Below are positions 3,301-43,135 of a stretch of 64,000 bases of DNA, one piece after another. The stretch is from NCBI RefSeq assembly GCF_964188315.1, contig NC_135667.1, forward strand, positions 26,598,001 through 26,662,000. Direction: 5' to 3'. The stretch comes from Podarcis muralis. Taxonomy: Eukaryota. The position numbers and the translations under genes were made by a program. The notes below the pieces were generated by a model that saw only the letters and a program-made list of their open reading frames with translations, was not told the origin of the DNA and ran no database searches. Each line of letters begins with the position of its first letter. Positions within the stretch are counted from its first letter, which is position 1.

Positions 3301-4260
3301 TCAATGCTGTAGACGTTGCAAATTGGGGAAGAATAGGGTGAATAGATTTGCCGTCATCTTCCACAATGCCGATTTCAGTTGCCTATTCCGTATACTATAG
3401 ATTATTGGGTTCATAACTGGAGGAAACATGCAATAGAACATAGAAAGCACAAGATCCATGACTGATGGGGACCCAGAAGTTGGCTTTAGATAGGCAAATG
3501 AACCACTGGCAAGAAATAAGGATATTACAATAAGATGTGGCAAGCAAGTTGAGAAGGCTTTTTCCTTCCCCTGGGCAGAAGGAATTCTTAGAACTGCCCT
3601 GAAGATCTGAACATAAGAATAAACTATCAGAGCAAAGTATGTAAAACCCAGAGACGCACCAACACAAATAACCCAAAATGCGATGAGATATGAATCAGAA
3701 CAAGCAATTTTAAATAACTGTGGGATTTCACAGAATAACTGGTTGATTTCATTGGAACAGAACTCAAGTGTGAATGTGCTTCCAGTGTATATTGTAGAAT
3801 ACAGAAGCCCACCAACCCATGCACAGATTGCCAGTTGGACGCATGTCTTTCTATTCATGATAGTCTCATAGTGCAGTGGACAGCAGATGGCAATGTAGCG
3901 GTCATATGCCATAATACCAAGGATGAACAAGTGAGATCCAATAAAAAGAATGAGAAAGAAAACCTGGCAGATGCATCCACTGTATGAAATAGTCTTGGTG
4001 TTCATCAGGGAATTTGACAAGGATTTGGGGACTGTGACAGATATTGAGCCAATGTCTTGGAATGCAAGATTGGCCAAAAAGAAGTACATGGGTTTGTGAA
4101 GCTGAGGACTGCAAGAGATGACTGTGATGATGAGAAGGTTTTCAATGAGAGCCAACAAATAAATAAGCAGAAAAGCAATGAAACGGAATGTCTCCATCTC
4201 CTGAGTATCAGAGAATGCATGCAAAATGAATTCCATCAGTCCTGATGATTGGTTGAACAT
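3301..4260 (-). CDS. Olfactory receptor, OR14-like, gene A (319 aa from first ATG)
   Basis: LHKPMYFFLANL, MAYDRYIAIC, KAFSTCLPHL and PVMNPIIYSIRN motifs; the ORF-track TTG start at 4284 lies in the polypyrimidine tract of the acceptor tttgcag, first ATG is at 4260. Confidence 0.95.
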   Translation of the reverse strand: MFNQSSGLMEFILHAFSDTQEMETFRFIAFLLIYLLALIENLLIITVISCSPQLHKPMYFFLANLAFQDIGSISVTVPKSLSNSLMNTKTISYSGCICQVFFLILFIGSHLFILGIMAYDRYIAICCPLHYETIMNRKTCVQLAICAWVGGLLYSTIYTGSTFTLEFCSNEINQLFCEIPQLFKIACSDSYLIAFWVICVGASLGFTYFALIVYSYVQIFRAVLRIPSAQGKEKAFSTCLPHLIVISLFLASGSFAYLKPTSGSPSVMDLVLSMFYCMFPPVMNPIIYSIRNRQLKSALWKMTANLFTLFFPNLQRLQH

Positions 4261-5170
4261 TGTGTAGGTATTTGGTACCTGCAAAGAGAAAACAAACCCA
4301 TTTTAGAAAGGAGAAGAGTATCAGAGGCTTTCATGCAGGTTCCCCATGTGATCAAATAGATTGACCTAGGTAAGCCAGAAACCATTGCTCTTTCAATAAA
4401 CATTTGTTTGTTGTTCATCTTAAAATTAAAAAGTATACACCTTTAAAAATGTTAAATCTCTAAGTGGTTAGTATTACATATTATAAAAATATTTCATATT
4501 GTTCAATGTTTCGTATATATATATAATATATAATATATAATCTATATTATATAAAGAGTTTATATTGATATTGCATTATTGTACTTGATCATTGTGTTGC
4601 CTTGGATATTACTGATGACTGTTGGAAAGAAACAGAGGAACTGAGGTGAGAGGGAATAGAAGGCAGCTGCTGCTTCCCTGAGCAGAAACCCTCCACAAGC
4701 CATCTTGTTGCAGGACTTTACCTGCTGAATACAGTGCCAAAAACATTCAAACATTATTCTCAAGACATTTAACTGAATCAGATTGTTTGTCTCAGGCTTC
4801 AGTGAGCGTTTCCTGCAACAACCATTCAGTAGAGATGGTCTAAGTTAACCAGTCTAACACTACAAAAGTGGCAACTAATCATTCTGTTTCTGCCACTGGA
4901 GCATTGTTATACTTTGGTGCAGCTTCGAGTGCGGATGACATCTGAAATCATTCCTCCCAGTATAATGCAGTTAGAAAATTTGCAACTCCACTAAGTGTCT
5001 TAAGGGGTGGAGCTCTTGATATGGTATATTGACCTCTAAGAGTGGTGCATCAGTCCTGGCTGGGGTGCTGGTTTTGGGGGGAGAGAGGGTGCTTATGCTG
5101 AGTGGAAGCATGAAATTCTGACCTGAAAACCTGCTTGTTTAGTAGTACTGTCCTTTTCCACTGCCAGAAG

Positions 5171-5203
5171 TGTGTGTGTCTCTGTGTGTGTGTGTGTGTG
5201 TGT
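5171..5203. repeat. (GT)n microsatellite
   Basis: Direct reading; longer in the paralogue at ~22519-22571. Confidence 0.9.
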
Positions 5204-5350
5204 AAAGCAGGCATTAATTCTCATCATAATCCAAAAGACCACGATGATCCCCATCATTCAATGATGCCTTTTTCCATGTCACGGGTTTCCAGCATGCACC
5301 AGCAAAGAGAATCTGCAGCTGACACATTCTCTTCAGTGCCTCATGCAAAT

Positions 5351-6886
5351 CACTGGGCAACAATTTTTTACTTTTTGAATGTTGTTTAGATTTCTACAAC
5401 TGATTTAGGGTATTTTTGCACTGCTGAATCAGGAAGTGGCATCCGTTTCTCTCCATCAGGTCAGGTTTATTGTAAACGGAATGGTGGGCATTGATAAAGG
5501 TAAGTACACGTAAATTGCATGTTGCTTCACCATTTTTCAAACTTCAGGGCTTGAACTTCCGTTTCTTGGAACTCCTGGAATGCTCAGCGGCAGGGAGGTC
5601 TCTCTTCAGAGTCCAACAGTAGTCAGCCATCATGACTGCGTCCCAGCGTCCCAGCGACCCTGATACCTGGTCTCCATCTCTTTCATGTCCTGATGGAATC
5701 TCTCCCCCTGCTCGTCACTCATTGAACCCAGGTTCTCAGGAAACCGGTCCATATGTGAAAATAGGTAGTGCATCTTGACGCTCATGTTGCAGCCCAGGTT
5801 TCTGAAAGCAGTCAGCATGTTGTTGACAAGTTCTGCGTAGTTTCTGGCCTTATTGTTGCCAAGAAAGTTATTCACTACCAGAACAAATGCCTTCCACGCT
5901 TCCAGTTCCACTTCGTTCATTGAGTTTCCGAACTCTGGATCTCTGATGAGCTGACGGATCTGAAGACCGTCAAAGATGCCACTTTCAACTTCTCCATGGT
6001 CAATCCTGGAAAAGCCTGGCACAAGTAAGTGAAGCAGTCACCATCCTTGTCCAGAGCCTTGGTGAACTGCTTGATTAAGCCGAGCTTGATGTGCAGCAGT
6101 GGGAAGAGTATTCTGTCTCTGTCCACCAGAGGGTCGTTGATGATGTTCCTTTTTTTGCAAGGCACCAATTCCTCCCGCACAGGCCAGTCCTTATTTGTGT
6201 AATGCTGAGCACGGTCCCTACTATCCCACATGCACAGAAAACATGGGTACTTGGTGAAGCCAGACTGTTGTCCCAACAAAAAGTTCACCATCTTCAGGTC
6301 AACACAAATAAACCACTTATGCTGATCATAACCAATTTTCTCCAGCACATACTTCACCTCTTCATAGTTCTCCTTCAGTGTACTCGAGTAAGCCAGGGGT
6401 ATAGAGGCAATCTGGTTGCTGTTGTGTAGCAGAACACATTTCAGTGATCGCTTGCTGCTGTCAATGAACAGTCTCCAATCTTTGGGTTCGTACTGTGGCA
6501 CTCCAAGCTTGAGCAGAAGCTGCGCAATATCTGCACAGTACACCAAGTCCTTCTCTTCCGAGAAAAAAAGGAGGTTTTATGACTTCAAACTGATCCCTTG
6601 TCGACATAATCACCCAGAACTATCAGACCTGAATACTTCTTGTCATTAAAATAATCATTTCCAATCAAAACAATTATTCAACATGGCATTTTACCCCCAC
6701 CAACTTCTTCTAAAATGCTCCACGCAAGTGTACATGTGAACAAAAACATAAAAAAACCGACATGTGGCCATAGCTCAAAAACATGACCTGATTGAGCAAA
6801 ACCAATGTGATCTTTGGATTCAGCGCATCAGATTCGTCCTAAAAAAACTGAAAAAACACAGACAACAAATTTGTTGTTGACCAGTG
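5351..6886 (-). mobile_element. Internally deleted Chapaev3/CMC-type DNA transposon with frameshifted transposase
   Basis: TIRs cactgggcaacaa / ttgttgaccagtg; overlapping ORFs 5917-6546 (WRLFIDSSKRSLK, LGQQSGFTKYPCFLC, LHIKLG) and 5630-6022 (KMHYLFSH, SDEQGERFHQD); family name from recall. Confidence 0.75.
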
Positions 6887-20685: not shown

Positions 20686-21645
20686 TCAATGCTGTAGACG
20701 TTGCAAATTGGGGAAGAATAGGGTGAATAGATTTGCCGTCATCTTCCACAATGCTGATTTCAGTTGCCTATTCCGTATACTATAGATTATTGGGTTCATA
20801 ACTGGAGGAAACATGCAATAGAACATAGAAAGCACAAGATCCATGACTGATGGGGACCCAGAAGTTGGCTTTAGATAGGCAAATGAACCACTGGCAAGAA
20901 ATAAGGATATTACAATAAGATGTGGCAAGCAAGTTGAGAAGGCTTTTTCCTTCCCCTGGGCAGAAGGAATTCTTAGAACTGCCCTGAAGATCTGAACATA
21001 AGAATAAACTATCAGAGCAACATAAGTAATGGCTAGAAATATACCAACACAAATAACCCGAAATGTGATGATATATGAATCAGAACAAGCAATTTTAAAT
21101 AACTGTGGGATTTCACAGAAGAACTGGTTGATTTCATTGGAACAGAACTCAAGTGTGAATGTGCTTCCAGTGTATATTGTAGAATACAGAAGCCCACCAA
21201 CCCATGCACAGATTGCCAGTTGGACGCATGTCTTTCTATTCATGATAGTCTCATAGTGCAGTGGACAGCAGATGGCAATGTAGCGGTCATATGCCATAAT
21301 ACCAAGGATGAACAAGTGAGATCCAATAAAAAGAATGAGAAAGAAAACCTGGCAGATGCATCCACTGTATGAAATAGTCTTGGTGTTCATCAGGGAATTT
21401 GACAAGGATTTGGGGACTGTGACAGATATTGAGCCAATGTCTTGGAATGCAAGATTGGCCAAAAAAAAGTACATGGGTTTGTGAAGCTGAGGACTGCAAG
21501 AGATGACTGTGATGATGAGAAGGTTTTCAATGAGAGCCAACAAATAAATAAGCAGAAAAGCAATGAAACGGAATGTCTCCATCTCCTGAGTATCAGAGAA
21601 TCCATGCAAAATGAATTCCATCAGTCCTGATGATTGGTTGAACAT
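20686..21645 (-). CDS. Olfactory receptor, OR14-like, gene B (319 aa), near-identical to A except TM5
   Basis: Intact OR motifs; acceptor AG at 21664-21665. Confidence 0.95.
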   Translation of the reverse strand: MFNQSSGLMEFILHGFSDTQEMETFRFIAFLLIYLLALIENLLIITVISCSPQLHKPMYFFLANLAFQDIGSISVTVPKSLSNSLMNTKTISYSGCICQVFFLILFIGSHLFILGIMAYDRYIAICCPLHYETIMNRKTCVQLAICAWVGGLLYSTIYTGSTFTLEFCSNEINQFFCEIPQLFKIACSDSYIITFRVICVGIFLAITYVALIVYSYVQIFRAVLRIPSAQGKEKAFSTCLPHLIVISLFLASGSFAYLKPTSGSPSVMDLVLSMFYCMFPPVMNPIIYSIRNRQLKSALWKMTANLFTLFFPNLQRLQH

Positions 21646-22525
21646 TGTGTAGGTATTTGGTACCTGCAAAGAGAAAACAAACCCATTTTAGAAAGGAGAA
21701 GAGTGTCAGAGGCTTTCATGCAGGTTCCCCATGTGATCAAATAGATTGACCTAGGTAAGCCAGAAACCATTGCTCTTTCAATAAACATTTGTTTGTTGTT
21801 CATCTTAAAATTAAAAAGTATACACCTTTAAAAATGTGAAATCTCTAGTATTACATATTATAAAAATATTTCATATTGTTCAATGTTTCGTATAGATTAT
21901 ATAAAGAGTTTATATTGATATTGCATTATTGTACTTGGTCATCGTGTTGCCTTGGATATTACTGATGACTGTTGGAAAGAAACAGAGGAACTGAGGTGAG
22001 AGGGAATAGAAGGCAGCTGCTGCTTCCCTGAGCAGAAACCCTCCACAAGCCATCTTGTTGCAGGACTTTACCTGCTGAATACAGTGCCCAAAACATTCAA
22101 ACATTATTCTCAAGACATTTAACTGAATCAGATTGTTTGTCTCAGGCTTCAGTGAGCGTTTCCTGCAACAACCATTCAGTAGAGATGGTCTAAGTTAACC
22201 AGTCTAACACTACAAAAGTGGCAACTAATCATTCTGTTTCTGCCACTGGAGCATTGTTCTACTTTGGTGCAGCTTCGAGTGCGGATGACATCTGAAATCA
22301 TTCCTCCCAGTATAATGCAGTTAGAAAATCTGCAACTCCACTAAGTGTCTTAAGGGGTGGAGCTCTTGATATGGTATATTGACCTCTAAGAGTGGTGCAT
22401 CAGTCCTGGCTGGGGTGCTGGTTTTGGGGGGAGGGAGGGTGCTTATGCTGAGTGGAAGCATGAAATTCTGACCTGAAAACCTGCTTGTTTAGTAGTACTG
22501 TCCTTTTCCACTGCCAGAAGTGTGT

Positions 22526-22574
<49 letters not shown>

Positions 22575-22718
22575 GCAGGCATTAATTCTCATCATAATCC
22601 AAAAGACCACGATGATCCCCATCATTCAATGATGCCTTTTCCCATGTCACGGGTTTCCAGCATGCACCAGCAAAGAGAATCTGCAGCTGACACATTCTCT
22701 TCAGTGCCTCATGCAAAT

Positions 22719-24248
22719 CACTGGGCAACAATTTTTTACTTTTTGAATGTTGTTTAGATTTCTACAACTGATTTAGGGTATTTTTGCACTGCTGAATCAG
22801 GAAGTGGCATCCGTTTCTCTCCATCAGGTCAGGTTTATTGTAAACGGAATGGTGGGCATTGATAAAGGTAAGTACACGTAAATTGCATGTTGCTTCACCA
22901 TTTTTCAAACTTCAGGGCTTGAACTTCCGTTTCTTGGAACTCCTGGGATGCTCAGCGGCAGGGAGGTCTCTCTTCAGAGTCCAACAGTAGTCAGCCATCA
23001 TGACTGCGTCCCAGAGACCCTGATACCTGGTCTCCATCTCTTTCATGTCCTGATGGAATCTCTCCCCCTGCTCGTCACTCATTGAACCCAGGTTCTCAGG
23101 AAACCGGTCCATATGTGAAAATAGGTAGTGCATCTTGACGCTCATGTTGCAGCCCAGGTTTCTGAAAGCAGTCAGCATGTTGTTGACAAGTTCTGCGTAG
23201 TTTCTGGCCTTATTGTTGCCAAGAAAGTTATTCACTACCAGAACAAATGCCTTCCACGCTTCCAGTTCCACTTCGTTCATTGAGTTTCCGAACTCTGGAT
23301 CTCTGATGAGCTGACGGATCTGAAGACCGTCAAAGATGCCACTTTCAACTTCTTCATGGTCAATCCTGGAAAAGCCTGGCACAAGTAAGTGAAGCAGTCA
23401 CCATCCTTGTCCAGAGCCTTGGTGAACTGCTTGATTAAGCCGAGCTTGATGTGCAGCGATGGGAAGAGTATTCTGTCTCTGTCCACCAGAGGGTCGTTGA
23501 TGATGTTCCTTTTTTTGCAAGGCACCAATTCCTCCCGCACAGGCCAGTCCTCCTTTGTGTAATGCTGAGCACGGTCCCTACTATCCCACATGCACAGAAA
23601 ACATGGGTACTTGGTGAAGCCAGACTGTTGTCCCAACAAAAAGTTCACCATCTTCAGGTCAACACAAATAAACCACTTATGCTGATCATAACCAATTTTC
23701 TCCAGCACATACTTCACCTCTTCATAGTTCTCCTTCAGTGTACTCGAGTGAGCCAGGGGTATAGAGGCAAACTGGTTGCCGTTGTGTAGCAGAACACATT
23801 TCAGTGATCGCTTGCTGCTATCAATGAACAGTCTCCAATCTTTGGGTTCGTACTGTGGCACTCCAAGCTTGAGCAGAAGCTGCACAATATCTGCACAGTA
23901 CACCAAGTCCTTCTCTTCCGAGAAAAAAAGGAGGTTTTATGACTTCAAACTGATCCCTTGTTGACATAATCACCCAGAACTATCGGACCTGAATACTTCT
24001 TGTCATTAAAATAATCATTTCCAATCAAAACAATTATTCGACATGGCATTTTACCCCCCACCAACTTCTTCTAAAATGCTCCACGCAAGCGTACATGTGA
24101 ACAAAAACGTTTAAAAAATGACATGTGGCCATAGCTCAAAAACTTGACCTGATTGAGCAAAACCAATGTGATTTTTGGATTCAGTGCATCAGATTCATCC
24201 TAAAAAAACTGAAAAAAATGCAGACAACAAATTTGTTGTTGCCCAGTG
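22719..24248 (-). mobile_element. Chapaev3/CMC-type DNA transposon (duplicate of 5351-6886)
   Basis: Perfect 13-bp TIRs cactgggcaacaa / ttgttgcccagtg; transposase fragments 23277-23906 and 22912-23382. Confidence 0.75.
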
Positions 24249-31788: not shown

Positions 31789-32916
31789 AAGAAAAGACTC
31801 ATGGGAATGTGTGGTATGTGTTTGTATTTTTACATGTAAAAACATTCTATAGCGTACCAAATGATAAACAGTTCAAGCAATAATCACCATGTCACATGCA
31901 ATTTCATGTGATACGGAATGAGTGCCAATATACATTGGAATATACATCACTTGATTCCTTTTTTTTACTTATTCGTTAATTTATAAGTATTCATATTATA
32001 ACACAAAGGTCTGTTTCCAAGCTTTTCACAATATTACACATGTACAATGATAGATTCCCCTCAATTCTGAAATGTCTCCCTGAAGCCATACTAAAACACC
32101 CAAAAATCCTAACAGAGTAAAAGAAAAGAAAGAGGAGTTCAAAGAAGGACCATCTAGATTGGAAAAGGAATATTAGCCTAGGTAAGATGTGTTCTACAAG
32201 TTCGTTTCTTCTTAGATTTGAGTGCAGAGTACTTGCAAGGGAAAGAAAGTGTGAGAAGCAATGAGTCTTACAACCTCGGTGTGGATTTTATGCCAGCGAT
32301 TCTCCCCAAACTGAGGTCAGTTGTTTTTTTTTAGAAGGCTAAATGCCCTGTCTTCCTGAAAGATATTAGCCCTTTAGGGCTTTTGAAATGCCATGGGGAG
32401 CCATGAAGATATTGTAAATCTCTGAGAAATGGATCTTTTACCATGGATCTTCTTCCTGCTATCTACATGGGAGGGGGAGCAGATGTTCTTGGTTTCCCTC
32501 TAGGTTACCTCTGGCCTTCCAAACTTTGAAGCTAGTTTCTATACAAAGTGGGAGGAATGATGGAGAGGAATTTTCATTAATACAATATGTGACTTTCTCC
32601 TTGCGTAACACTTCCAGAAGTATGTTTTACTGTGGTCTTCAAACAACAACAAAACCTGCCTCCTCAGTAATGACATGGTCTGGTCTTAGCATAACTCCTC
32701 CTACCCATGATCACTGAGATTGGGTGTCCCAGTGTGTCCCAGTGCAGAGATTGTGTGTGTCCCCCATGGAACCTGCCCCAACCATTCTGTTGGCTGGGGC
32801 CTACTCCCAGGCAGTCCTGACTCTCTCCCCTTAAGAACAGAATACAAACTATATAAAACAATGAAAACTAATTAAAAAACAAAAAATCACAGTTCTACTA
32901 AAAATTAAACTAATTT

Positions 32917-33614
32917 TGTTGTTTAGTCGTTTAGTCGTGTCCGTCTCTTAGTGACCCCATGGACCAGAGCACGCCAGGCACCTCTGTCCTCCACTACCTC
33001 CCACAGTTTGGTCAAACTCATGCTGGTAACCTCGAAAACACTATCCAACCATCTTGTCCTCTGTCGCCCCCTTCTCCTTGTGCCCTCAATCTTTCCCAGC
33101 ATCAGTGTCTTCTCCAGGGAGTCTTCTCTTCTCATGAGGTGGCCAAAGTACTGGAGCCTCAGCTTCACGATCTGTCCTTCCAGTGAGCCCTCAGGGCTGA
33201 TTTCCTTAAGAATGGATGTGTTTGATCTTCTTGCAGTCGATGGGACTCTCAAGAGTCTTCTCCAGCACCATAATTCAAAAGCATCAATTCTTCGGCGATC
33301 AGCCTTCTTTATGGTCCAGCTCTCACTTCCATACATCACTACTGGGAAAACCATGGCTTTAACTATACGGACCTTTGTTGGCAAGGTGACGTCTCTACTT
33401 CTCAAGATGCTGTCTAGGCCTGTCATTGCCCTTCTCCCAAGAAGCAGGCGTCTTTTAATTTCGTGGCTGCTGTCACCATCTGCAGTGATCATGGAGCCCA
33501 AGAAAGTAAAATCTCTCACTGCCTCCATTTCTTCCCCTTCTATTTGCCAGGAGGTGATGGGACCAGTGGCCATGATCTTCGGGGGTTTTTTGATGTTGAG
33601 CTTCAGACCATATT
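32917..33614 (-). mobile_element. BovB/RTE LINE, 5'-truncated, with open RT C-terminal frame
   Basis: GLKLNIKK..KIMA, FTFLGS, EIKRRLLLG, YGSESWT, RWLD; (caa)n tail. Confidence 0.95.
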
Positions 33615-33616
33615 CA

Positions 33617-34060
33617 TCATGGAACTTTGGAGTGTCAGGCATAGCCCTACTGGCTTTAGCCCAAACGTAGCAGAGTTTTCCTGCACAGCAAGGAAGCTAG
33701 TTGCGGCAGTAATGACAAGTCAGCTAGACTCAGAATAACTATTTACAGGATTTATTAAAAGGAGAAAATAAAACCAGCAGAGTTTCTGCATACAAATCAA
33801 AGCAAAATAAATCCTCTCTTTCTCTCTCTCTCAAAACCATACACAGCACTTCTACTCCTAACAACACCTCACTTCAAACTGAGCTAGCAATCCCTTGATA
33901 ACAGAGCAGAGTGCTGGTTGTTAACCAATCAGAGTAAGTAGTTTCTAGGTCAAGCAGACCTAGGCTTTCTGCCAAGAGTAAATTGACACCAGCCTGAGTT
34001 AATTGTGAGAAGCTAGAATCTGCAAGTTTCCCACGAGAACCAATTAACAGAAACTGAACA
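33617..34060 (-). repeat. Copia 3' LTR
   Basis: 444 bp, about 2 mismatches to the 5' LTR; purine tract gaggggg (34061-34067) precedes it on the minus strand. Confidence 0.95.
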
Positions 34061-34113
34061 CCCCCTCACAGATTCTGCTGAACAATTAACACCAAATACA
34101 CCTATGTAGGAGA

Positions 34114-35169
34114 TCATTTTTCCAGCAAACCTAAACCCTTGCACATTCGCTTGTTCTTTATCTTTGCCAATGGTTTAGTTAATACATCTGCTACATTTTC
34201 TTCACTTGATACATAAGTACAGGTGATTACATTGTCTTGTACACAGCAACGTACATTTTGGTATTTTACAGAGATATGTTTGGAACGCGATTTGAAACCC
34301 TCTGTTTTACTTAATGTTATACAAGCTTGATTATCAATGTAAACTTGTACTGGTTCTCCACAATTTACATTTAAATCTGTTAACAAATGCTTGAAATAAA
34401 TCACCTCGTTGCACAATTCACTCAATGCGGCGTACTCTGATTCCGTTGATGACACACTTACAACGTCTTGCTTGCGTGACCGCCAGCTGATTAAAGCTCC
34501 ACCGACCATTATGACTAGTCCTGTGACAGATTTTCTATCCGGCAAATTTCCCCAGTCACTATCACAGTAGCAACTCAACATTTCATCCTCTGAAGAATTT
34601 AATTGTAACATATAGCCAATTGTCTGTTTGAGATATCTCAGAACTTGTTTTACCCCTTTCCAGGCATTTAGTGTGGGTTTTGAGACCAATCTACTTAATA
34701 TGCCTACTGCATAACTAATATCAGGTCTGGACCACTGTGCTAGATACAATAAACTTCCAATTACAGAGTGATATACATCAGGATGTTCAAATTCAGGACT
34801 CTCATCTATATGAAGTGTTTTTATGAAACCTGGATCCATAGGCACCACTGCCCCTTTGCAATCCTGCATCCTGTATGTAGTCAGTAGTTGTTTAACTTTG
34901 TTCTGCTGACTAATTAGGCAGCTGCCATCTTGGGCCCAGCACACTTCCAACCCTAGATATGTCCTAACCGGGCCTAAGTCTTTCACTTTGAACTTACTGG
35001 ACAATTGTTTGGCAAACCTTTTAGTTTGTTTATCTGTTTTGCATGCATACAAAACATCATCTACATAAATCAGACAAAACTCTTGATCACTGCCTGTACC
35101 ACGTACATAAACACAATTGTCAGCTGTACTCTGCTTGAAACCAAATGACACTAAGGCCTCATGGAAACA
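34114..35169 (-). CDS. pol: Copia polyprotein C-terminal part (RT YVDD and RNase H), 351 aa
   Basis: CLIYVDDVL, SRPDISYAVG, CDSDW, STESEY, ADVLTKPL; continues the 38968-41874 frame across the ERV. Confidence 0.93.
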   Translation of the reverse strand, partial: CFHEALVSFGFKQSTADNCVYVRGTGSDQEFCLIYVDDVLYACKTDKQTKRFAKQLSSKFKVKDLGPVRTYLGLEVCWAQDGSCLISQQNKVKQLLTTYRMQDCKGAVVPMDPGFIKTLHIDESPEFEHPDVYHSVIGSLLYLAQWSRPDISYAVGILSRLVSKPTLNAWKGVKQVLRYLKQTIGYMLQLNSSEDEMLSCYCDSDWGNLPDRKSVTGLVIMVGGALISWRSRKQDVVSVSSTESEYAALSELCNEVIYFKHLLTDLNVNCGEPVQVYIDNQACITLSKTEGFKSRSKHISVKYQNVRCCVQDNVITCTYVSSEENVADVLTKPLAKIKNKRMCKGLGLLEK

Positions 35170-35540
35170 TTTGTTTGTGGGAGTCATAAAGCCATGGTAA
35201 AGGCTTGCAATATTGCAGGGTGCCCCCTGACCTCGGCTGACCAGCACTCTGAGCTTTACAATGCATTGGAATGCATTGACCTTATAAGGAGTTATGTTCT
35301 CTCCCCCTCTGGGCAGTGTAACCCTATATCGTTTGTGGGTGGGTTAAAGCTTGACCGGATGAGGTAACGTGAGACATTGGAATGCAGCCATGCGGCTGGA
35401 CAGAACAAAGGATAATAAAAAGTGATCGGAGGAGAGGAGAAGTCTCAATGAGCTCTCTCTCTTATTATGGAATATTACTCGCTCTCTATGTCTTTATTTT
35501 ATATTAAAGAAGTGCCACTTGTAACGGCTGGCCCGACAAG

Positions 35541-35557
35541 TGGTGCCCCGTGTGAGG
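35541..35557 (+). promoter_or_regulatory. ERV primer binding site complementary to the elongator tRNA-Met 3' end
   Basis: tggtgccccgtgtgagg is the reverse complement of ...CCTCACACGGGGCACCA (vertebrate tRNA-Met(e), from recall). Confidence 0.85.
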
Positions 35558-35783
35558 CTGAATAAAAGAATACGACTGAGGTTTTTAAAAGAGAGCTAAG
35601 AAGCGATTTAAAGCAAACAGTCTGAGGCAGACTAAGAGAAACTGTGAGAGGATTTTCGATCCAAGCAGTGAATATCATCGGCTCACTACGTCCGGCAAGG
35701 ATTGCAAAGCGCTTTACATCTTTAAAAAAAGATCCCGGTGAGTCCGATCCCTTTTCTCCTTCTTTTATATTGATTTTAGAGAC

Positions 35784-36677
35784 ATGGGCAGCTCTTTGAC
35801 TTCTCCGCAACAGAAATTTTTAAAAGACTTAAAATTTCTCCTCTCCTCCAACAAATTGGAAGTTCCTGATGGTGATGTGATACAGCTCATTCTGGCTATT
35901 GATGAACATTGTCCCTGTTTCCCTGTGAATGGAACATGGGAAATAAAACATTGGGATATGATTGGGACTCATTTTCATGGGCTCCCCAGCAGTAGTGCTC
36001 GGATTTTAAATGCTTGGTGTAAAATTCGATATGCTATGGGTTCTTTATCACCAAAAAATATCTCCATGGCTGCATTGCCAACACAACCTCCAGCTTCTTT
36101 AATTCAGCCTGCTGTGCTGGCATCTGTTCCAATACTGGCTTTGCCTGCAGCCCCAGATCCCAAACCTCCAGACTACAGTTCCTCACCAGAGGACCCAATC
36201 CTGCAAAAATACAGTGGTCTGGCTGGGAATGACCCTGCTCTTTCAGCAGCACAACCAGCTACCCCTTTTCAACGTGCAGTCCTTGCCTGTTCCTTATCTC
36301 AGGATACCATGGCATTCCCTGGTGCTCCAGCAGGAACTCAAGCCCAGCACCAACCTTTTGACTTTAAAATCTTGAAAGAGCTGCAATTGTCAGTAAGGAC
36401 AAATGGACTGCAAGCTCCATTTAAACAAGCAAGAGGGAATAATCCTAATCTTACCCTCGCAGATGTGATGGATGCTATGATGGGGCATGGCCCCCTTGCT
36501 CAGGCTTCAGTACAAGCCACACTGCTGCAGATCTTATTGAGGGATACTGCTCTTGCTGCTCAACAAGCAATGAGAAAAATCCCGGAACCCACCAGTATCC
36601 AGTCTAGGTGGGGTTCAATCAGACAAGAACGGTGGCCTCCTCCAAAAGAAAAATCCGCAGCACCAGCTTGTTTCTGA
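35784..36677 (+). CDS. gag: Truncated Gag (MA, PPxY late domain, partial CA) fused to the start of RT, 297 aa
   Basis: MGSSLTS myristoylation-type start; IDEHCPCFP..GTW...W beta-type MA; PPDY; PFDFKILKEL; ends IRQ-ERWPPPKEK (RT QWPLxxEK-like). Confidence 0.85.
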   Translation: MGSSLTSPQQKFLKDLKFLLSSNKLEVPDGDVIQLILAIDEHCPCFPVNGTWEIKHWDMIGTHFHGLPSSSARILNAWCKIRYAMGSLSPKNISMAALPTQPPASLIQPAVLASVPILALPAAPDPKPPDYSSSPEDPILQKYSGLAGNDPALSAAQPATPFQRAVLACSLSQDTMAFPGAPAGTQAQHQPFDFKILKELQLSVRTNGLQAPFKQARGNNPNLTLADVMDAMMGHGPLAQASVQATLLQILLRDTALAAQQAMRKIPEPTSIQSRWGSIRQERWPPPKEKSAAPACF

Positions 36678-36703
36678 ACAGCTTATTTCTGAACAATTGA
36701 CTT

Positions 36704-37720
36704 TTGGCCACATTGAACCGTCTTCATCCCACTTCTGACACCAGCAGACAGGAACGGTTTGCTTTTATATTGCCAGTATTCTCAACCCACCAGCGATATC
36801 AGTGGATTGTCCTGCCTCACAGCATGTGGAACTCCCCTACACTTTGTCAGCATTTTATGGATGAAGCATCGAAACCTTTCCGCATGCACCACCTAGAGGT
36901 GCTGAACAACAGCTGCATCTGACAGTATTTGCTACACCATTGTTGCCAACAGGAATTTTATATGCTCAGACATTGTGATCAAAGGACATTCACGTGCTAT
37001 AGCTTTGAGCAGTTTTGATATTGCATCAATTTATTTGCCTTTTTCACAGACTGAACAGCAACATTTATTGATCACAAATGCTGCCGTGCAAATTGCTTTG
37101 GCAGATTTTATAGGTGTCATCATTTTTAACCCTCCAAAGGATGACCGTTTGACATTTCTGATGCAGGTCACCTATGTCTTGGCTATCCCCTTGTCTCTCA
37201 CACCTCTCCCCTCTGCACTGACCCTTTTCACGGATGGAACAAGGAGTAGGGGGGTGGTGACATGGGAGGAGGGAGGAAAATGGAAATGTTATTTACCCCT
37301 CCACAGTCTTCTGCCCAGCTTGCCTTTCAATCCTTTCCTACTCAACCTTTCAATCTTATTGTGGATATGACTCAGTATGTATATCGCCTTTTTGCTATTT
37401 TACCAGTATCTTATATAACTCCTTCCTTGGATTCTGACTTGTTTTCCTTGTTTCTTGCCCTGCAAGCTTTACTTCAGCACAGAGAGTTCCCTTATTATGT
37501 TGCACATCTTCGCTCCCACACATCGCACCCAGGGTATTTAGCAGAAGGCAATGCACAAGCAGATGCAGCATTGAGGGACATTTCTGCCTTTTCTCTCTTT
37601 TCTGATCCTATACTATGTCATAACACCCTTCATCTCCCTGCGAAAGCATTGGCTAAGCAGTTTTCTATTCCTTTGGCCCAAGCTAGGGATATTGTGTCCC
37701 AAGGTGCTTCTTGTTCCCAA
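36704..37720 (+). pseudogene. pol: Fragmented pol (RT, tether, RNase H, integrase zinc finger)
   Basis: RFAF..RYQWIVLPHSMWNSPTLCQ; LFTDG; HLRSHT..GNAQAD; H-x3-H..LAQARDIV..; no YMDD motif and no integrase core. Confidence 0.85.
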
Positions 37721-37735
37721 GGATGGCGTGCGGCC

Positions 37736-38563
37736 ATGGCGAGCATCTTCAACCGCAGAAGCGCCTTCCTAACCATTTGCCTTGCCATCCTTTCCTGCAC
37801 CGTTATACAAGGAAGAGAAGCAGATGATCCAGTCCAGTTGAAACCACCATATTTCACCTTATCAGCTGGCAAGCCGCTGTCATCAGAATCCTACTCTGGC
37901 TGGCAGCATCCACGGCTCAGCCACTCTCGAACTAGAAGAACAGTGTTGTTGAATAAGACTTTTAGGGGAGAAAATTATCATAAGATATGGAGGGATAATA
38001 TTTTTGTACAAGATATGATTAAGTTTACTAGTTTATTGCATGCTTCTAAATGTTGGTTATGTATGCACATGCCGCCCTTTGCCAGTCATTCAGGCATAAT
38101 GCTTCATGGTGTGCCTGTCAATGGATCTTTTCGATTTACAAATAGCATATCCCCTAAGCAAACCTTTTGGCCTCCAGTACAATTGACCCTCCATGAGCCT
38201 GCTCCCATTTGTTTTCAAATTAAAGAGGGGAAAGAATCATGGGGCATATATCCAAACTGTCAATATACATTGAAATTCATGTTTAATAGCTCTTGTTCTC
38301 TTACAGCGATACCAGTGCATGGTTATAAACCAGAAAGGAAGCCTACCATGCAGCTTGGAATCAGAATTCTTATATTCTTGGCTTCCGGATGGAAGTTGGC
38401 TTCGACATTTATTGATTATAGTGATTATTATAGTAGTTATTTGCATTATTTTGTGTTGCTATATACAATGTATTCCTTCTTTAATTTCTGTATGTACTGC
38501 ATGGTTCTCCAGTCCGCGGCCCGCTTCCGGTCTCACAAGAGTCGCCTATCAAGCTCGACATAA
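37736..38563 (+). CDS. env: Env-derived ORF (signal peptide plus SU N-terminal part), 275 aa
   Basis: gccATGG start; hydrophobic leader FLTICLAILSCTVIQG; RTRR; CWLC; sequons NKT, NGS, NSS; native TM anchor (SWLP..WLRHLLIIVIIIVVICIILCC) lies in another frame (38319-38585). Confidence 0.65.
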   Translation: MASIFNRRSAFLTICLAILSCTVIQGREADDPVQLKPPYFTLSAGKPLSSESYSGWQHPRLSHSRTRRTVLLNKTFRGENYHKIWRDNIFVQDMIKFTSLLHASKCWLCMHMPPFASHSGIMLHGVPVNGSFRFTNSISPKQTFWPPVQLTLHEPAPICFQIKEGKESWGIYPNCQYTLKFMFNSSCSLTAIPVHGYKPERKPTMQLGIRILIFLASGWKLASTFIDYSDYYSSYLHYFVLLYTMYSFFNFCMYCMVLQSAARFRSHKSRLSSST

Positions 38564-38967
38564 CCATATATATGGCTCTGATTAAAATATAAAGAAAGAG
38601 GGCATGTGGGAGTCATAAAGCCATGGTAAAGGCTTGCAATATTGCAGGGTGCCCCCTGACCTCGGCTGACCAGCACTCTGAGCTTTACAATGCATTGGAA
38701 TGCATTGACCTTATAAGGAGTTATGTTCTCTCCCCCTCTGGGCAGTGTAACCCTATATCGTTTGTGGGTGGGTTAAAGCTTGACCGGATGAGGTAACGTG
38801 AGACATTGGAATGCAGCCATGCGGCTGGACAGAACAAAGGATAATAAAAAGTGATCGGAGGAGAGGAGAAGTCTCAATGAGCTCTCTCTCTTATTATGGA
38901 ATATTACTCGCTCTCTATGTCTTTATTTTATATTAAAGAAGTGCCACTTGTAACGGCTGGCCCGACA

Positions 38968-41874
38968 TTTGTTCCAAGATCTTGCAGCCTGTTTGAGACC
39001 GTATAGAGCTTTGTTTAATTTCAACACTCTATTGGAACCTGTCTCATAACCAGGCGGTTCGGCAAGATACAGGTCTTCTGATATTGACGCATGTAAATAT
39101 GCAGTCTGAATGTCAAAATGGTTTAACAGGAGTTTTCTCTTTGCTCCAAGAGTTAAAATCAGCCTTACACTGTCCCCCTTGGCAGTAGGGGAAAAAGTCT
39201 CGTCATAATCTTTTCCAGGCCTCTGAGAGTATCCTTGAGCGACTAAACGAGCTTTGTATTTGTACTCTCCTGTCACCAGAGGTTTAAGTTTGTATACCCA
39301 CCTGCAGCCTACAATCTTTGCCCCCTCAGGCGCTGCTACTGGTGTAAAAACCTTGTGCTCATTCAGAGAGGACATCTCTTCCTCCATTGCCTGTTTCCAG
39401 CGCTCTGCCTCCTCTTTTGGTAACTTTAACACCTCCTGAAAACTCTTGGGTTCTGCAATCACACTAAACACATTTGCAGTATCTGGAGAAAAACGCACCG
39501 GAGGCACTCCTTTGTTTTGTCTTTTAGATCTTCTGGGAGAAAATTTTTCTTCTGACCCACTTTCCTCCTCAGAACTACGACCTCTCTTTTGTTGCTTAGC
39601 AACTGGTCTTTGGCTAACTCCACTTTCTTGAGAGCTCTTATCTGAACTTTCCTCCCCCTCAGACTCTGATTCTCTATGTTTACCTTCAGAGTCATGAAGC
39701 TCCTGGGAAGGTTCAAACCAAACCTCAGTATTGGCATGTAGTCTCTCCCAGCCACTATGTTCACAAAAACTGGCATTCCTGGAGATCACAATGCCATTTG
39801 TCCCTTCAGCAAAGCGGAAACCTTTTCCCAGCTCCTGGTAACCCACAAACACTAACTGTTTGGTCTTAGGATCTCCCTTCTTCCTCATTTGTTTTGGAAT
39901 TAATACCCAGGCTTTTGATCCAAACACATGCAAATGGTCAATTTTGGGTTTTTTCTGAAACAATTTAAAGTACGGGGTTGTACCTATAGTTTGATGAAAG
40001 AGCCTGTTTTGGAGATAACACGCGGTGAGCATGCTCTCCCCCCAATAAGACATGGGCAAATCAGCATCGTCAAGCATGGCAAACATCATATCTTGTAAAG
40101 ATCTGTTTTTTCGCTCTGCAACGCCATTCTCCTCTGGGGAAAAAACGTTCGTTTTCCTATGCCCAATGCCACGCTTTTGTAACCAATCTTTAAAGGCATT
40201 TGACATAAATTCGCCACCTCTGTCCGTCTGAATCCTTTTAAGTTTAATGGACAGAAATCTTTCCACAGATGCCACCCAGCCTTTAAACTTAGTGAACACG
40301 TCACCCTTATTCTTCATGGGAAAAACCCAAGAATAACGTGTGGCGTCATCCACAATTGTTAGTGAAAAGCGCGATCCACCCCTGCTTACAGCAAATGGAC
40401 CAATTACGTCCATGTGAACCAGCTGTAGCGGTGACTCACTAACTCTGTCACTTCTGGGGTAAGAGACTCTGTGGGTTTTAACCTTTTTACACACATTACA
40501 ATCAAGGTACTTGTTACAACTCTTTAAATTACCCCCATCAGCCAATTCAGACATTTTTAGTACACTTTTCCAGCAAGCATGCCCCATTTTCCTATGCAAT
40601 AAGTGCACACAGTTGTCATGTATAGCTTTGTTATTCACTGCAGGCTGAGATTTACTGACTACTGCTGCAACTTGAGATCCTGCTTTAAGCCAAAACAAGC
40701 CTCCCTCTGACTTAGCAGTGCCTAAAATCTCACCAGCCTTCTTAATAATGCAACTGTCTCCTTCAAAATGCACTTTAAACCCAGCTTTTAGCAAACAATC
40801 TACAGACATCAGATTGCTCCTTAATGAAGGCACACAAAGTACATTTTGCAGGCATTCACGAAGACAAGGAACAAAAACTGCACCCCCCGAAATCACTTCG
40901 GAAGTACTTCCGTCTGCTAGAGCCACCTGGCTGCGCTGTGCTGAGTTCTTGGAAACAAACAATTCATCTGAATTTACGATGTGGCGAGATGCTCCTGAAT
41001 CGACCACCCAGACCGCTTGTTTCTCATCAGCACTCTTGACCTCGCCGGTCACCAGCTGAGCCGACTGTTTTTGTTTGAAGAATTTCTTTTTACGCTGCTG
41101 CTGCTGCTGATCTCGTCTCTGCTCCTGCACCGGCAACTGAGACTTGACCAACTCCGGACATTGTCGTTTTAGATGCGCTGAAGACCCACATCGGAAACAA
41201 CGCCTAACAGCAAACGCTGACTCCTCACTGGTACGCTGCTTTTGCGTCACCTCTGGCACGGCATGAAAACTCCTTCCAAACCGCCCGCCTGTAGAAGCCT
41301 CTGCAGCCAACGACCTTTCTTGCCTCTTCTGCCATTCTTCAATCAAACGCCCAGTAACGTAACTGACTGATAAATCATGCTCCTGCATGCCTTCTAGAGA
41401 CAAAACTAAATTATCCCAGCTTTCCGGGAGAGAACTCAAAATAATAGCCACCTTCTCCTGCTGGTCTAACGCACAGTCTCTTTCCTGTAGCGCAACAAAC
41501 TTTAACTGTAAACTGTGTAGGTGTTCCTGCATTGTAACCCCAGGCTGTAACATTGCCTTGTACAATGCCTTGCGAATGAACAGCTTGGAAACCGCTGTCT
41601 CACGCACATGGAGTTCTTTAAGTGCTTGCCACACACCTCTAGCTGTCTTGATTCCCCTCACATACGGCAACTGGGAATCTTCCAGCCCCAAGACAATTGT
41701 GGCCCTTGCTCTTTGGTCTTTATCGAGGTCTTCATCATCAGGCTTCGCAGGAAACTTACTCACCACTTGCCAGAGATGATCCCTCTGCAGCACTGCCTGC
41801 ATGCGTTCCGACCACAGCAAGTAATTGGAGTCATTCAGACGCTCAAAAGCCATCTGAACTGGTTGTGAGGCCAT
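38968..41874 (-). CDS. gag-pol: Copia polyprotein N-terminal part (Gag, zinc knuckle, protease, integrase, start of RT), 969 aa
   Basis: CFRCGSSAHLKRQC; VVDSGAS; HRKMGH..C..C; VHMDVIGP, QTDRGGEF, NGVAERKNR; KARLVAQG; YGLKQAARSWNK. Confidence 0.95.
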
Positions 41875-42120
41875 CTTGAGAGCGATGTCCCTGGAACCCG
41901 GAACCAGCTACTCACGACCACCGAGAGAGAAAACAGGAACCACAGCACCCAGCACTCACACGCTGCAGCTGTTGTCCTTGTGCCCGCTGCGTCACCAGCT
42001 CACCACAGTCAGGAACCAGCCAGTGTCCATCTGCTGCACCAACAGGAACAACAACTTCTGGAACTACTGGAACCAACGCCGTTGATGCTGACACCACCGC
42101 AACTCAGGCTGGCAGCACAA

Positions 42121-42131
42121 TGCCCATAACC
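42121..42131 (-). promoter_or_regulatory. Copia PBS complementary to the anticodon stem-loop of initiator tRNA-Met
   Basis: ggttatgggc directly abuts the 5' LTR and matches the Drosophila copia-type PBS GGTTATGGGCCCA. Confidence 0.8.
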
Positions 42132-42575
42132 TCATGGAACTTTGGAGTGTCAGGCATAGCCCTACTGGCTTTAGCCCAAACGTAGCAGAGTTTTCCTGCA
42201 CAGCGAGGAAGCTAGTTGCGGCAGTAATGACAAGTCAGCTAGACTCAGAATAACTATTTACAGGATTTATTAAAAGGAGAAAATAAAACCAGCAGAGTTT
42301 CTGCATACAAATCAAAGCAAAATAAATCCTCTCTTTCTCTCTCTCTCAAAACCATACACAGCACTTCTACTCCTAACAACACCTCACTTCAAACTGAGCT
42401 AGCAATCCCTTGATAACAGAGCAGAGTGCTGGTTGTTAACCAATCAGAGTAAGTAGTTTCTAGGTCAAGCAGACCTGGGCTTTCTGCCAAGAGTAAATTG
42501 ACACCAGCCTGAGTTAATTGTGAGAAGCTAGAATCTGCAAGTTTCCCACGAGAACCAATTAACAGAAACTGAACA
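42132..42575 (-). repeat. Copia 5' LTR
   Basis: 444 bp, TGTTCAG...CCATGA in element orientation. Confidence 0.95.
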
Positions 42576-43135
42576 ATTCAGACCCAACTGCAACTAAATG
42601 TTAATCCCTCCCCCAACAAGCAAAAACCAAACCATAAAACCAAAATTTAAAACAGCACAAATTAAAAACTATTTAAAAACATTTTTGACATTTGACCCAA
42701 CCCCAGAGTTATTCCAGTGAGTCTGGGCTCTTCAGCACTCACAGCCAAGCAGTGTCTCTCCAGTGACGTCTTCTTCCTTCAACAAACGCATGTTGCACAG
42801 GGTTGCATGAAAAGAAACCCCTATGTCTAAGCTCCTGCTCAAAGGAAGATGCACTGCACAATCAGGAGAAATGCACAGTCAGGTGCCCCAGTCATGTGGT
42901 GCATCTACACACAGTCAGGATCTTGAATGTTGGGGATTCTTTACAGACAACAGCACACAATGCATGAGGTGGCTTGTAAAGCAGCCTGTAACTTCATGTG
43001 ACACAATGGTGCTGGAGGAAGAAGTAGCAGTGGGGATGAGTCTCCATGGCATTTTGCATTTGTTTTATGGGTGTAATTTTATTGTTGATGTGGTGCTGTT
43101 TACCACCATTATTATTTTTTTCTTAAGGTTGGCAG

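Follow-up and report, generated by a model that had tools for sequence, protein, structure and literature searches.

Reduced retroviruses and nested elements in vertebrate genomes

The question of why defective retroviruses keep a broken Gag has so far been pursued mainly on the mouse IAP 1-delta-1. According to the passages of a review that concern it, this deleted class II endogenous retrovirus (ERV) has an in-frame gag-pol fusion, depends on proteins supplied in trans and accounts for most new IAP insertions, and its fusion protein promotes retrotransposition in cis (PMC6466679). Here we describe an ERV of the wall lizard Podarcis muralis that parallels 1-delta-1 in structure and spread, yet is not an IAP. 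It lies inside a copia retrotransposon, which in turn sits at the 5' junction of a BovB long interspersed nuclear element (LINE), in a 64,000-nt stretch of the 1.52-Gb genome (the window: NC_135667.1:26598001-26662000, assembly GCF_964188315.1). All coordinates without a contig name are positions in the window.

Each of the three layers has described counterparts. Among squamate ERVs, PyERV of Python molurus is reported to combine a betaretrovirus-like gag-pol with a gamma-type env (PMC3758190). Copia elements are described as abundant in squamates and mostly of the Mtanga clade (PMC11889832), and in the corn snake active copia elements are reported in OCA2 (PMC4657000) and in CLCN2 (PMC11948899). 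For the squamate Bov-B LINE, membership of the RTE clade and a (CAA)n-type tail are described, along with very high abundance in a wall lizard whose genome is about as large as this one (PMC13295347). For nesting itself, the closest vertebrate case that we found is the mouse non-agouti allele, where an ERV-beta4 lies inside a VL30 (PMC6466679). The lizard locus resembles it as a young ERV nested in another young element with long terminal repeats (LTRs). It is unlike that allele, as presented in the review, in that there the outer element is non-autonomous and a gene is affected, while here it is the inner ERV that is non-autonomous, and no effect on a gene is known.

Structure of the nested elements

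The copia element spans 33617-42575 on the - strand, with the 5-bp target-site duplication (TSD) ATTCA on both sides. It is interrupted at 35176-38967 by the ERV, which is 3,792 bp long, lies on the + strand, antisense to copia, and has the TSD TTTGTT on both sides. The two ERV LTRs (35176-35538 and 38605-38967, + strand) are 363 bp long, run from TG to CA and show no differences; a polypurine tract stands ahead of the 3' LTR. All 18 bases of the primer binding site (PBS; 35541-35558, + strand) are complementary to the 3' end, including CCA, of a host elongator tRNA-Met(CAT). An exact pattern for the primer tRNA genes gave nothing, and tRNA-Met genes were found with a looser one.

TTTGTT, which is present here as a left copy (35170-35175, + strand) and as a right copy formed by the last 6 bases of the upstream copia coding piece, is single in unbroken copia copies. 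The ERV therefore inserted after copia. The initial annotation, made from the sequence, had proposed this three-layer nest with its coordinates and anatomy, the antisense orientation of the ERV, and LTR divergences of about 2 in 444 for copia and none in 363 for the ERV. All of these were confirmed. It had also taken the LTR divergences as support for the order of nesting; that argument fails, since 0/363 and 2/444 give a Fisher p of 0.50, and we rejected it as proof of order. The order itself stands on the TSDs; the recency of the insertions is supported as well.

Insertion of the ERV splits one copia polyprotein into an upstream piece of 969 codons (38968-41874, - strand: gag, protease, integrase and the first part of reverse transcriptase, RT) and a downstream piece of 351 codons and a stop (34114-35169, - strand: the rest of RT, with RVT_2, and RNase H). 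When translated separately, neither piece has a stop within its 969 or 351 codons. They align to residues 1-969 and 970-1320 of unbroken natural copies, exactly in 10/15 and shifted by 1-2 residues in the other five, in agreement with the 1320-codon frame that had been predicted for the rejoined element. Against one natural copy the alignments are gapless, with 98.9% and 99.55% identity. The ERV is the sole break in the frame. All 13 catalytic or structural motifs that were checked are present. The description of this copia as otherwise intact thus holds for the frame and the motifs; two residues of its gag part are absent from all 15 unbroken copies and private to this one, and its activity is a prediction from sequence.

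The ERV, in turn, has kept little of its own coding capacity. Its gag frame (35784-36677, + strand; 297 aa, with Gag_p10 and Gag_p24, and mapped on longer relatives) has what we take to be a myristoylation-type start and a PPxY motif, a matrix, and the N-terminal domain of capsid minus about 50 residues. The gag part stops where the presumed major homology region begins and is followed by a short tail of about ten residues of pol, which begins as the RT start; the C-terminal domain of capsid and the zinc knuckles of nucleocapsid are absent. Broken pol remnants follow at 36701-37725 (+ strand; an RT piece, connection, RNase H and an integrase zinc finger, with a weak RVT_1 match and Integrase_Zn), frameshifted and lacking the integrase core. 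A broken env remnant at 37736-38582 (+ strand) holds a signal peptide, the start of the surface subunit (SU) with CWLC, and then, in another frame, the membrane-spanning end of the transmembrane subunit. Compared with longer natural relatives, to which most pieces are 82-93% identical in nucleotides, the ERV lacks the end of gag, the protease, most of RT, the integrase core and most of env. It does not have the open gag, pro, pol and env of an autonomous provirus, and is a heavily deleted, non-autonomous provirus. A retained env product was considered and is not supported: the remnant is split over two frames, has stops in some copies and shows near-neutral ratios in two of its three pieces (0.72 and 1.32; the third, at 0.21, is based on 8 variants).

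The longer relatives have class II gag, pro and pol in separate frames (RVP, RVT_thumb, Integrase_Zn, IN_DBD_C), together with an env of gamma type (TLV_coat, CWLC, ISD, CX6CC), unlike a beta-type env, which has neither ISD nor CX6CC. On the strength of its gag domains, the frames of these relatives, its 6-bp TSD, TG...CA LTRs and tRNA PBS, the ERV is probably to be placed in class II (betaretrovirus-like). The combination reported for PyERV is also found in the longer relatives (Gag_p10, separate gag, pro and pol, CWLC, ISD, CX6CC), a likeness by description, not by sequence; unlike PyERV, the window element is a deleted derivative. The inner element had previously been called simply a retrovirus. 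A class II ERV it appears to be, but that reading missed that it is deleted and non-autonomous, and that its family is spreading and has kept a truncated gag.

Spread and mosaicism of the ERV family

The exact capsid-RT (gag-RT) junction of the window ERV is shared by 31 of the 61 gag matches in the genome, on 15 contigs. Two of these copies, about 25 kb apart on contig C3 (C3:7115460-7143431), have equal scores and frame lengths; they are probably a local duplication, so that two of the 31 loci may be one event. Twenty ERV loci were fetched by LTR: 17 have two full LTRs, two have a cut second LTR and one is a solo LTR. The paired copies are young. In 15 of the 17 the two LTRs are free of substitutions relative to each other, and an exact 6-bp TSD is present in 15/17, with 5/6 bases matching in the other two. 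The interiors, by contrast with these LTR pairs, diverge by 3-14% and carry many indels, and which copy is closest to the window ERV depends on the segment compared (LTR, leader, matrix, linker, RNase H, SU). Such recent insertions, with interiors this varied and mosaic, suggest that many copies have served as sources and that template switching was frequent. In one copy, L027, the PBS matches a second host tRNA-Met gene type, which is a mark of real reverse transcription.

Several observations concern the wider family. Copies L089-L105 form a deletion series from about 7.6 kb down to 2.8 kb with shared breakpoints, in which a long gag frame is kept in most stages while pol and env decay. One of them, L099, is itself interrupted: its 2.9-kb insert has 402-bp direct repeats that are identical and is a further nested LTR element. 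Thirteen equal-score matches, 12 on contig C20 (about 0.97-4.2 Mb, spaced 90-420 kb apart) and one on C35, belong to a 4.9-kb ERV relative with a 472-aa gag frame. They look like a large segmental array, which we would guess lies on a sex chromosome; C20 is generally rich in class II ERVs. The paper library searched, which does not extend to repeat databases (Repbase, Dfam) or most subscription journals, yielded no description of this ERV family and no paper combining Podarcis, endogenous retrovirus and copia; within that scope, novelty is not established.

Retention of the short gag frame

The short gag is open in 23 of the 24 copies parsed (L027 is not among them) and in 30/31 loci genome-wide, with frames of 307-373 aa. 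Distinct indels within it are multiples of three in 11 of 11 cases, against 14/48 elsewhere (p=1.6e-5), where the in-frame share is 2/12 in the leader, 4/19 in the pol remnant and 8/17 in the env remnant. Two separate deletions in gag, of about 50 and 105 residues, both kept the frame. Its variants are rich in synonymous changes (ratio 0.32). Among single-copy variants, synonymous and non-synonymous changes stand at 21:24 in gag and at 19:73 in the pol and env remnants (p=0.0025). From these patterns, the short Gag has probably been under selection.

What it would be selected for is suggested by the mouse system. Like IAP 1-delta-1 as the review presents it, the lizard ERV has an internal deletion shared by many young copies and a kept gag-derived frame. 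It differs in having a pol part of about ten residues, in lacking the C-terminal domain of capsid and nucleocapsid, in retaining env remnants, in its tRNA-Met primer and in its lizard host. By analogy with 1-delta-1, the likeliest reason, though at slightly less than even odds, is that the truncated Gag, predicted to be competent for myristoylation, helps the element's RNA into helper particles in cis. We tentatively propose a broader history, for which the odds may be a little below even. A lizard retrovirus lineage would have been whittled stepwise, with the gag frame kept each time, to a 3.8-kb parasite whose sole product is a membrane-targeted Gag stump, selected because it brings the element's RNA into the particles of a helper. 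Recombination would have carried the shortest-gag version onto many different LTR, leader and env backgrounds. If true, this would be a more reduced and independent reptile parallel of IAP 1-delta-1, with intermediate stages still in one genome, and the family would offer a natural deletion series for asking why a broken Gag is kept.

Several points weigh against this account of the family. The connection and RNase H remnants, which are dead, also have synonymous-rich shared variants (ratios 0.29 and 0.38), so that much of the gag signal may have been inherited from coding ancestors by recombination. The tests on gag ignore relatedness and recombination, and the indel events are not all independent, as several share a site. 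A helper of close kinship was not seen in the assembly: searches with the RT piece and the integrase core, which give lower bounds, found no close relative with an unbroken pol. In the integrase-core search, where 150 of 729 candidates were scored, the close copies had frames of 372-474 codons. Pol frames of 903 codons occurred in two proviruses at a greater distance, the nearest of that length; they are 75-78% identical in the integrase core, and their PBS starts with the same 14 bases.

The first of these points is the strength of the principal rival, in which the nest and the family are the same and the short gag is functionless. The deletion would have fallen in frame by chance, with a single recent origin, and the rest of gag would have been refreshed by recombination with gag-coding relatives. 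A single recent origin would fit the 300 bp adjoining the gag-RT junction, which are 98-100% identical among the 18 copies aligned there, and 30 further loci with longer gag frames are possible donors. That shared variants of the dead pol pieces are synonymous-rich too is a further point in its favour. Chance does less well with two separate gag deletions that both kept the frame, and with the indels of gag, all in frame, beside those of the pol remnant of the same copies (4/19); moreover, the excess of synonymous changes among single-copy variants is found in gag only. We therefore regard a functionless gag as rather unlikely, though as the most serious competitor to selection on the short Gag.

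A second rival keeps selection but changes its object: the short Gag would be kept for the benefit of the host, or for blocking rivals, since membrane-bound Gag that lacks the C-terminal domain of capsid and nucleocapsid would disrupt particle assembly in related viruses. Blocking of this kind is known for the transdominant Gag of enJSRV and for Fv1. The short Gag does keep the myristoylation motif, matrix and PPxY, and lacks the parts needed to finish assembly. Its signal, however, comes from 31 loci that are young and dispersed and have nearly identical LTR pairs, rather than from one old fixed locus, and poisoning the helper would hinder the spread of the ERV family itself. This explanation is improbable, and selection for the element's own packaging is preferred to it.

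Order and origin of the insertions

The nest most likely arose by three independent chance insertions into the intergenic region of a cluster of olfactory receptor (OR) genes, the last of them by the non-autonomous ERV. The BovB LINE would have come first, into an old dispersed repeat, and been cut short at its 5' end; the split repeat and the truncated LINE are both present at the locus. A member of the young, large TG...GA copia family inserted across the 5' junction of the LINE, leaving the 5-bp TSD seen today, at a locus that is polymorphic as judged from one sequencing run. The last step was the antisense insertion into the copia RT, with a 6-bp TSD, of a class II ERV that had lost internal parts and whose RNA would have been copied from a tRNA-Met primer. 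Because the ERV encodes no protease, working RT, integrase or envelope, while its TSDs are fresh and its copies mosaic, these proteins were most probably supplied in trans by a related virus or provirus. If different RNAs were packaged together, the mosaic pattern of the copies would follow.

The polymorphism was seen in reads from 4 of the 24 listed runs, placed on 38700-43100. Run X15 has the same species label (A) as the best-matching run; the assembly is assumed to carry label A from word sharing, which is 0.87 for run X1. A 190-letter contig of X15 matches 42576-42741 from its letter 25 onwards, so that ahead of the single ATTCA stand 24 letters foreign to the copia LTR. A copia-free allele therefore exists. 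The early end of this contig suggests that it runs into a high-copy repeat such as BovB. A contig of run X5 (label B) enters at 42582 after 92 other letters. X1 gave no piece across the right junction, and X23, whose unique flank has about 1-2 reads per base, is too thin. Polymorphism at the locus is thus supported. An allele with copia and without the ERV, of the uninterrupted kind that the initial annotation suggested may still segregate, was not demonstrated, as the read data listed could not resolve it.

Two of these read results count against the three-step account, or at least limit it. The X15 allele may carry BovB only or be an empty site. Furthermore, no read or contig crosses the ERV-copia junction among the pieces listed, which is no evidence of absence, as 1346 pieces and 83 loose ends lie beyond the list.

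The nest consists of elements of familiar types that came together by chance. For this pair of families, 61 ERV loci and 180-325 copia copies give 0.04-0.07 expected nests, or 0.02-0.16 over a wider range of copy numbers, and with 0.04-0.07 expected for this family pair alone we rejected the idea that the nest is a rare event needing a mechanism. Nesting was found elsewhere as well: one of 20 ERV loci (L026) lies in a BovB, and one of 20 copia copies (L052) lies in a BovB tail.

Another possibility is that copia came to the 5' junction of BovB for a reason, by target preference or coupled repair, or that BovB arrived second, beside an existing copia. The copia TSD does lie exactly across the LINE junction, a small target, and the LINE is without a clear TSD. 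No mechanism was found, and the exact landing is a coincidence: none of the 20 other copia copies lies at a BovB 5' junction, and one lies in a BovB tail, the query having been the 3' 2.2 kb next to one BovB copy. The clean 5-bp TSD of copia is of the kind made by integrase, the site occurs without copia in X15, and BovB has diverged further from its nearest copies (1.6-1.9%) than the copia interior from its own kin (about 1%). A non-random landing or a late BovB is accordingly very unlikely, and independent insertion in the order BovB, copia, ERV is retained. An assembly artefact joining three repeats, to which the missing junction-spanning read in the four runs might point, is highly improbable, since both nested elements have exact TSDs of family length and the expected LTR pairs, and the ERV LTRs match each other better (100%) than any other copy (at most 99%).

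With its empty, LINE, copia and copia plus ERV states, the nest should be a good multi-allelic marker, and it shows two LTR families inserting very recently in this germ line.

The copia family

The window copia fits the Ty1/copia superfamily. Its Pfam domains stand in the order Retrotran_gag_2, Pol_BBD, rve and RVT_2 (gag, protease, integrase, RT), and it has paired 444-bp LTRs (3' LTR 33617-34060; 5' LTR 42132-42575; - strand) that differ by 2 substitutions, a 5-bp TSD (ATTCA at 33612-33616 and 42576-42580, + strand; the right copy is the one found without an LTR in X15), a PBS and a polypurine tract, the latter a G-rich run adjoining the 3' LTR (34061-34070, - strand). The PBS (42122-42131, - strand) is complementary at 10/10 bases to the anticodon arm of an initiator-type tRNA-Met gene. 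Such priming from an internal part of the tRNA is known from Drosophila copia. The LTRs do not have the canonical TG...CA ends but TG...GA, which does not exclude the copia superfamily because it is a known non-canonical type within it, with rice Tos17, a non-TGCA copia with TGGA ends, as a described example (PMC9804982). The passages on this type describe plants, while the host here is a vertebrate; no kinship is implied.

The genome holds 669 candidates by copia LTR and 325 by RT, of which 40 of each were scored. Read depth in run X23, from another individual, is about 230 in the interior and 420-450 in the LTR, against 1.25-2 for single-copy DNA; these depths indicate roughly 120-180 copies, and an LTR depth of only 420-450 indicates few solo LTRs. 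Twenty copies (L043-L062) were fetched as top matches, and are thus biased towards close kin. All 20 have TG...GA termini with a 5-bp TSD, 14/20 have LTR pairs without substitution, and 15/20 carry a single unbroken frame of 1318-1324 codons, so the proposed genome search for uninterrupted copies was successful. It also removed the importance attached to the inactivation of this one element: as the family is large and 15/20 copies keep one frame, the loss is trivial for it.

The family is like the squamate copia elements described so far in being abundant, young, about 5 kb long, encoded in a single gag-PR-IN-RT-RH frame (PR, protease; IN, integrase; RH, RNase H) and recently inserting. The likeness to the Mtanga-rich squamate copia is by structure and abundance, not by clade, and the passages on squamate elements are silent on TG...GA termini. 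No description of a TG...GA copia family of this kind was found in the literature searched, with the same scope as for the ERV family, and its novelty is likewise not established. LTR finders that require TG...CA would miss or mis-trim this large, young vertebrate family.

The BovB fragment and the flanks

Beside copia lies a 5'-truncated LINE (32917-33614, - strand) that retains about 700 bp of the 3' end and a short-repeat tail. We take it to be a BovB element, of the RTE clade; the tail is of the type in the squamate Bov-B description. Pfam gave no match on the fragment. There are 2736 candidates in the genome, and the 7 closest copies examined are 98.1-98.4% identical to it and all extend upstream past the junction. 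The first 3 bases of the copia TSD are also the last 3 bases that match BovB, as the initial annotation had noted in describing an overlap with the end of the LINE. A TSD of the LINE itself was sought and rejected, nothing beyond ATT being found, unlike young copies in the squamate Bov-B paper, which as far as its passages go often have one (PMC13295347). The 8-mer TTCAGACC occurs both at 33602-33609, in the LINE just inside its 5' junction, and at 42577-42584, in the target just outside, and may reflect microhomology or slippage during joining of the LINE 5' end.

Beyond the nest, an old dispersed repeat was split by the BovB insertion into a left half at 32635-32914 and a right half at 42583-42764. 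Seven paralogs of this repeat were compared: the left-half match ends <=10 bases from the right-half match in four (L064, L065, L066 and L070), and further off in the other three. Paralogs of the flanks inside the window were checked for an empty site, and none shows one.

Eight intact-looking OR frames in the window form two groups, with 72-97% identity within each group and 35-41% across them. The nested block lies between these two subfamilies, as first described, and no link was found between their boundary and the block. The OR genes in 3301-6576 and 20686-23936 are 97% identical, and each is followed by a similar decayed transposase-like frame (5917-6576 and 23277-23936), which suggests that about 17 kb of the left OR group was recently duplicated in tandem.

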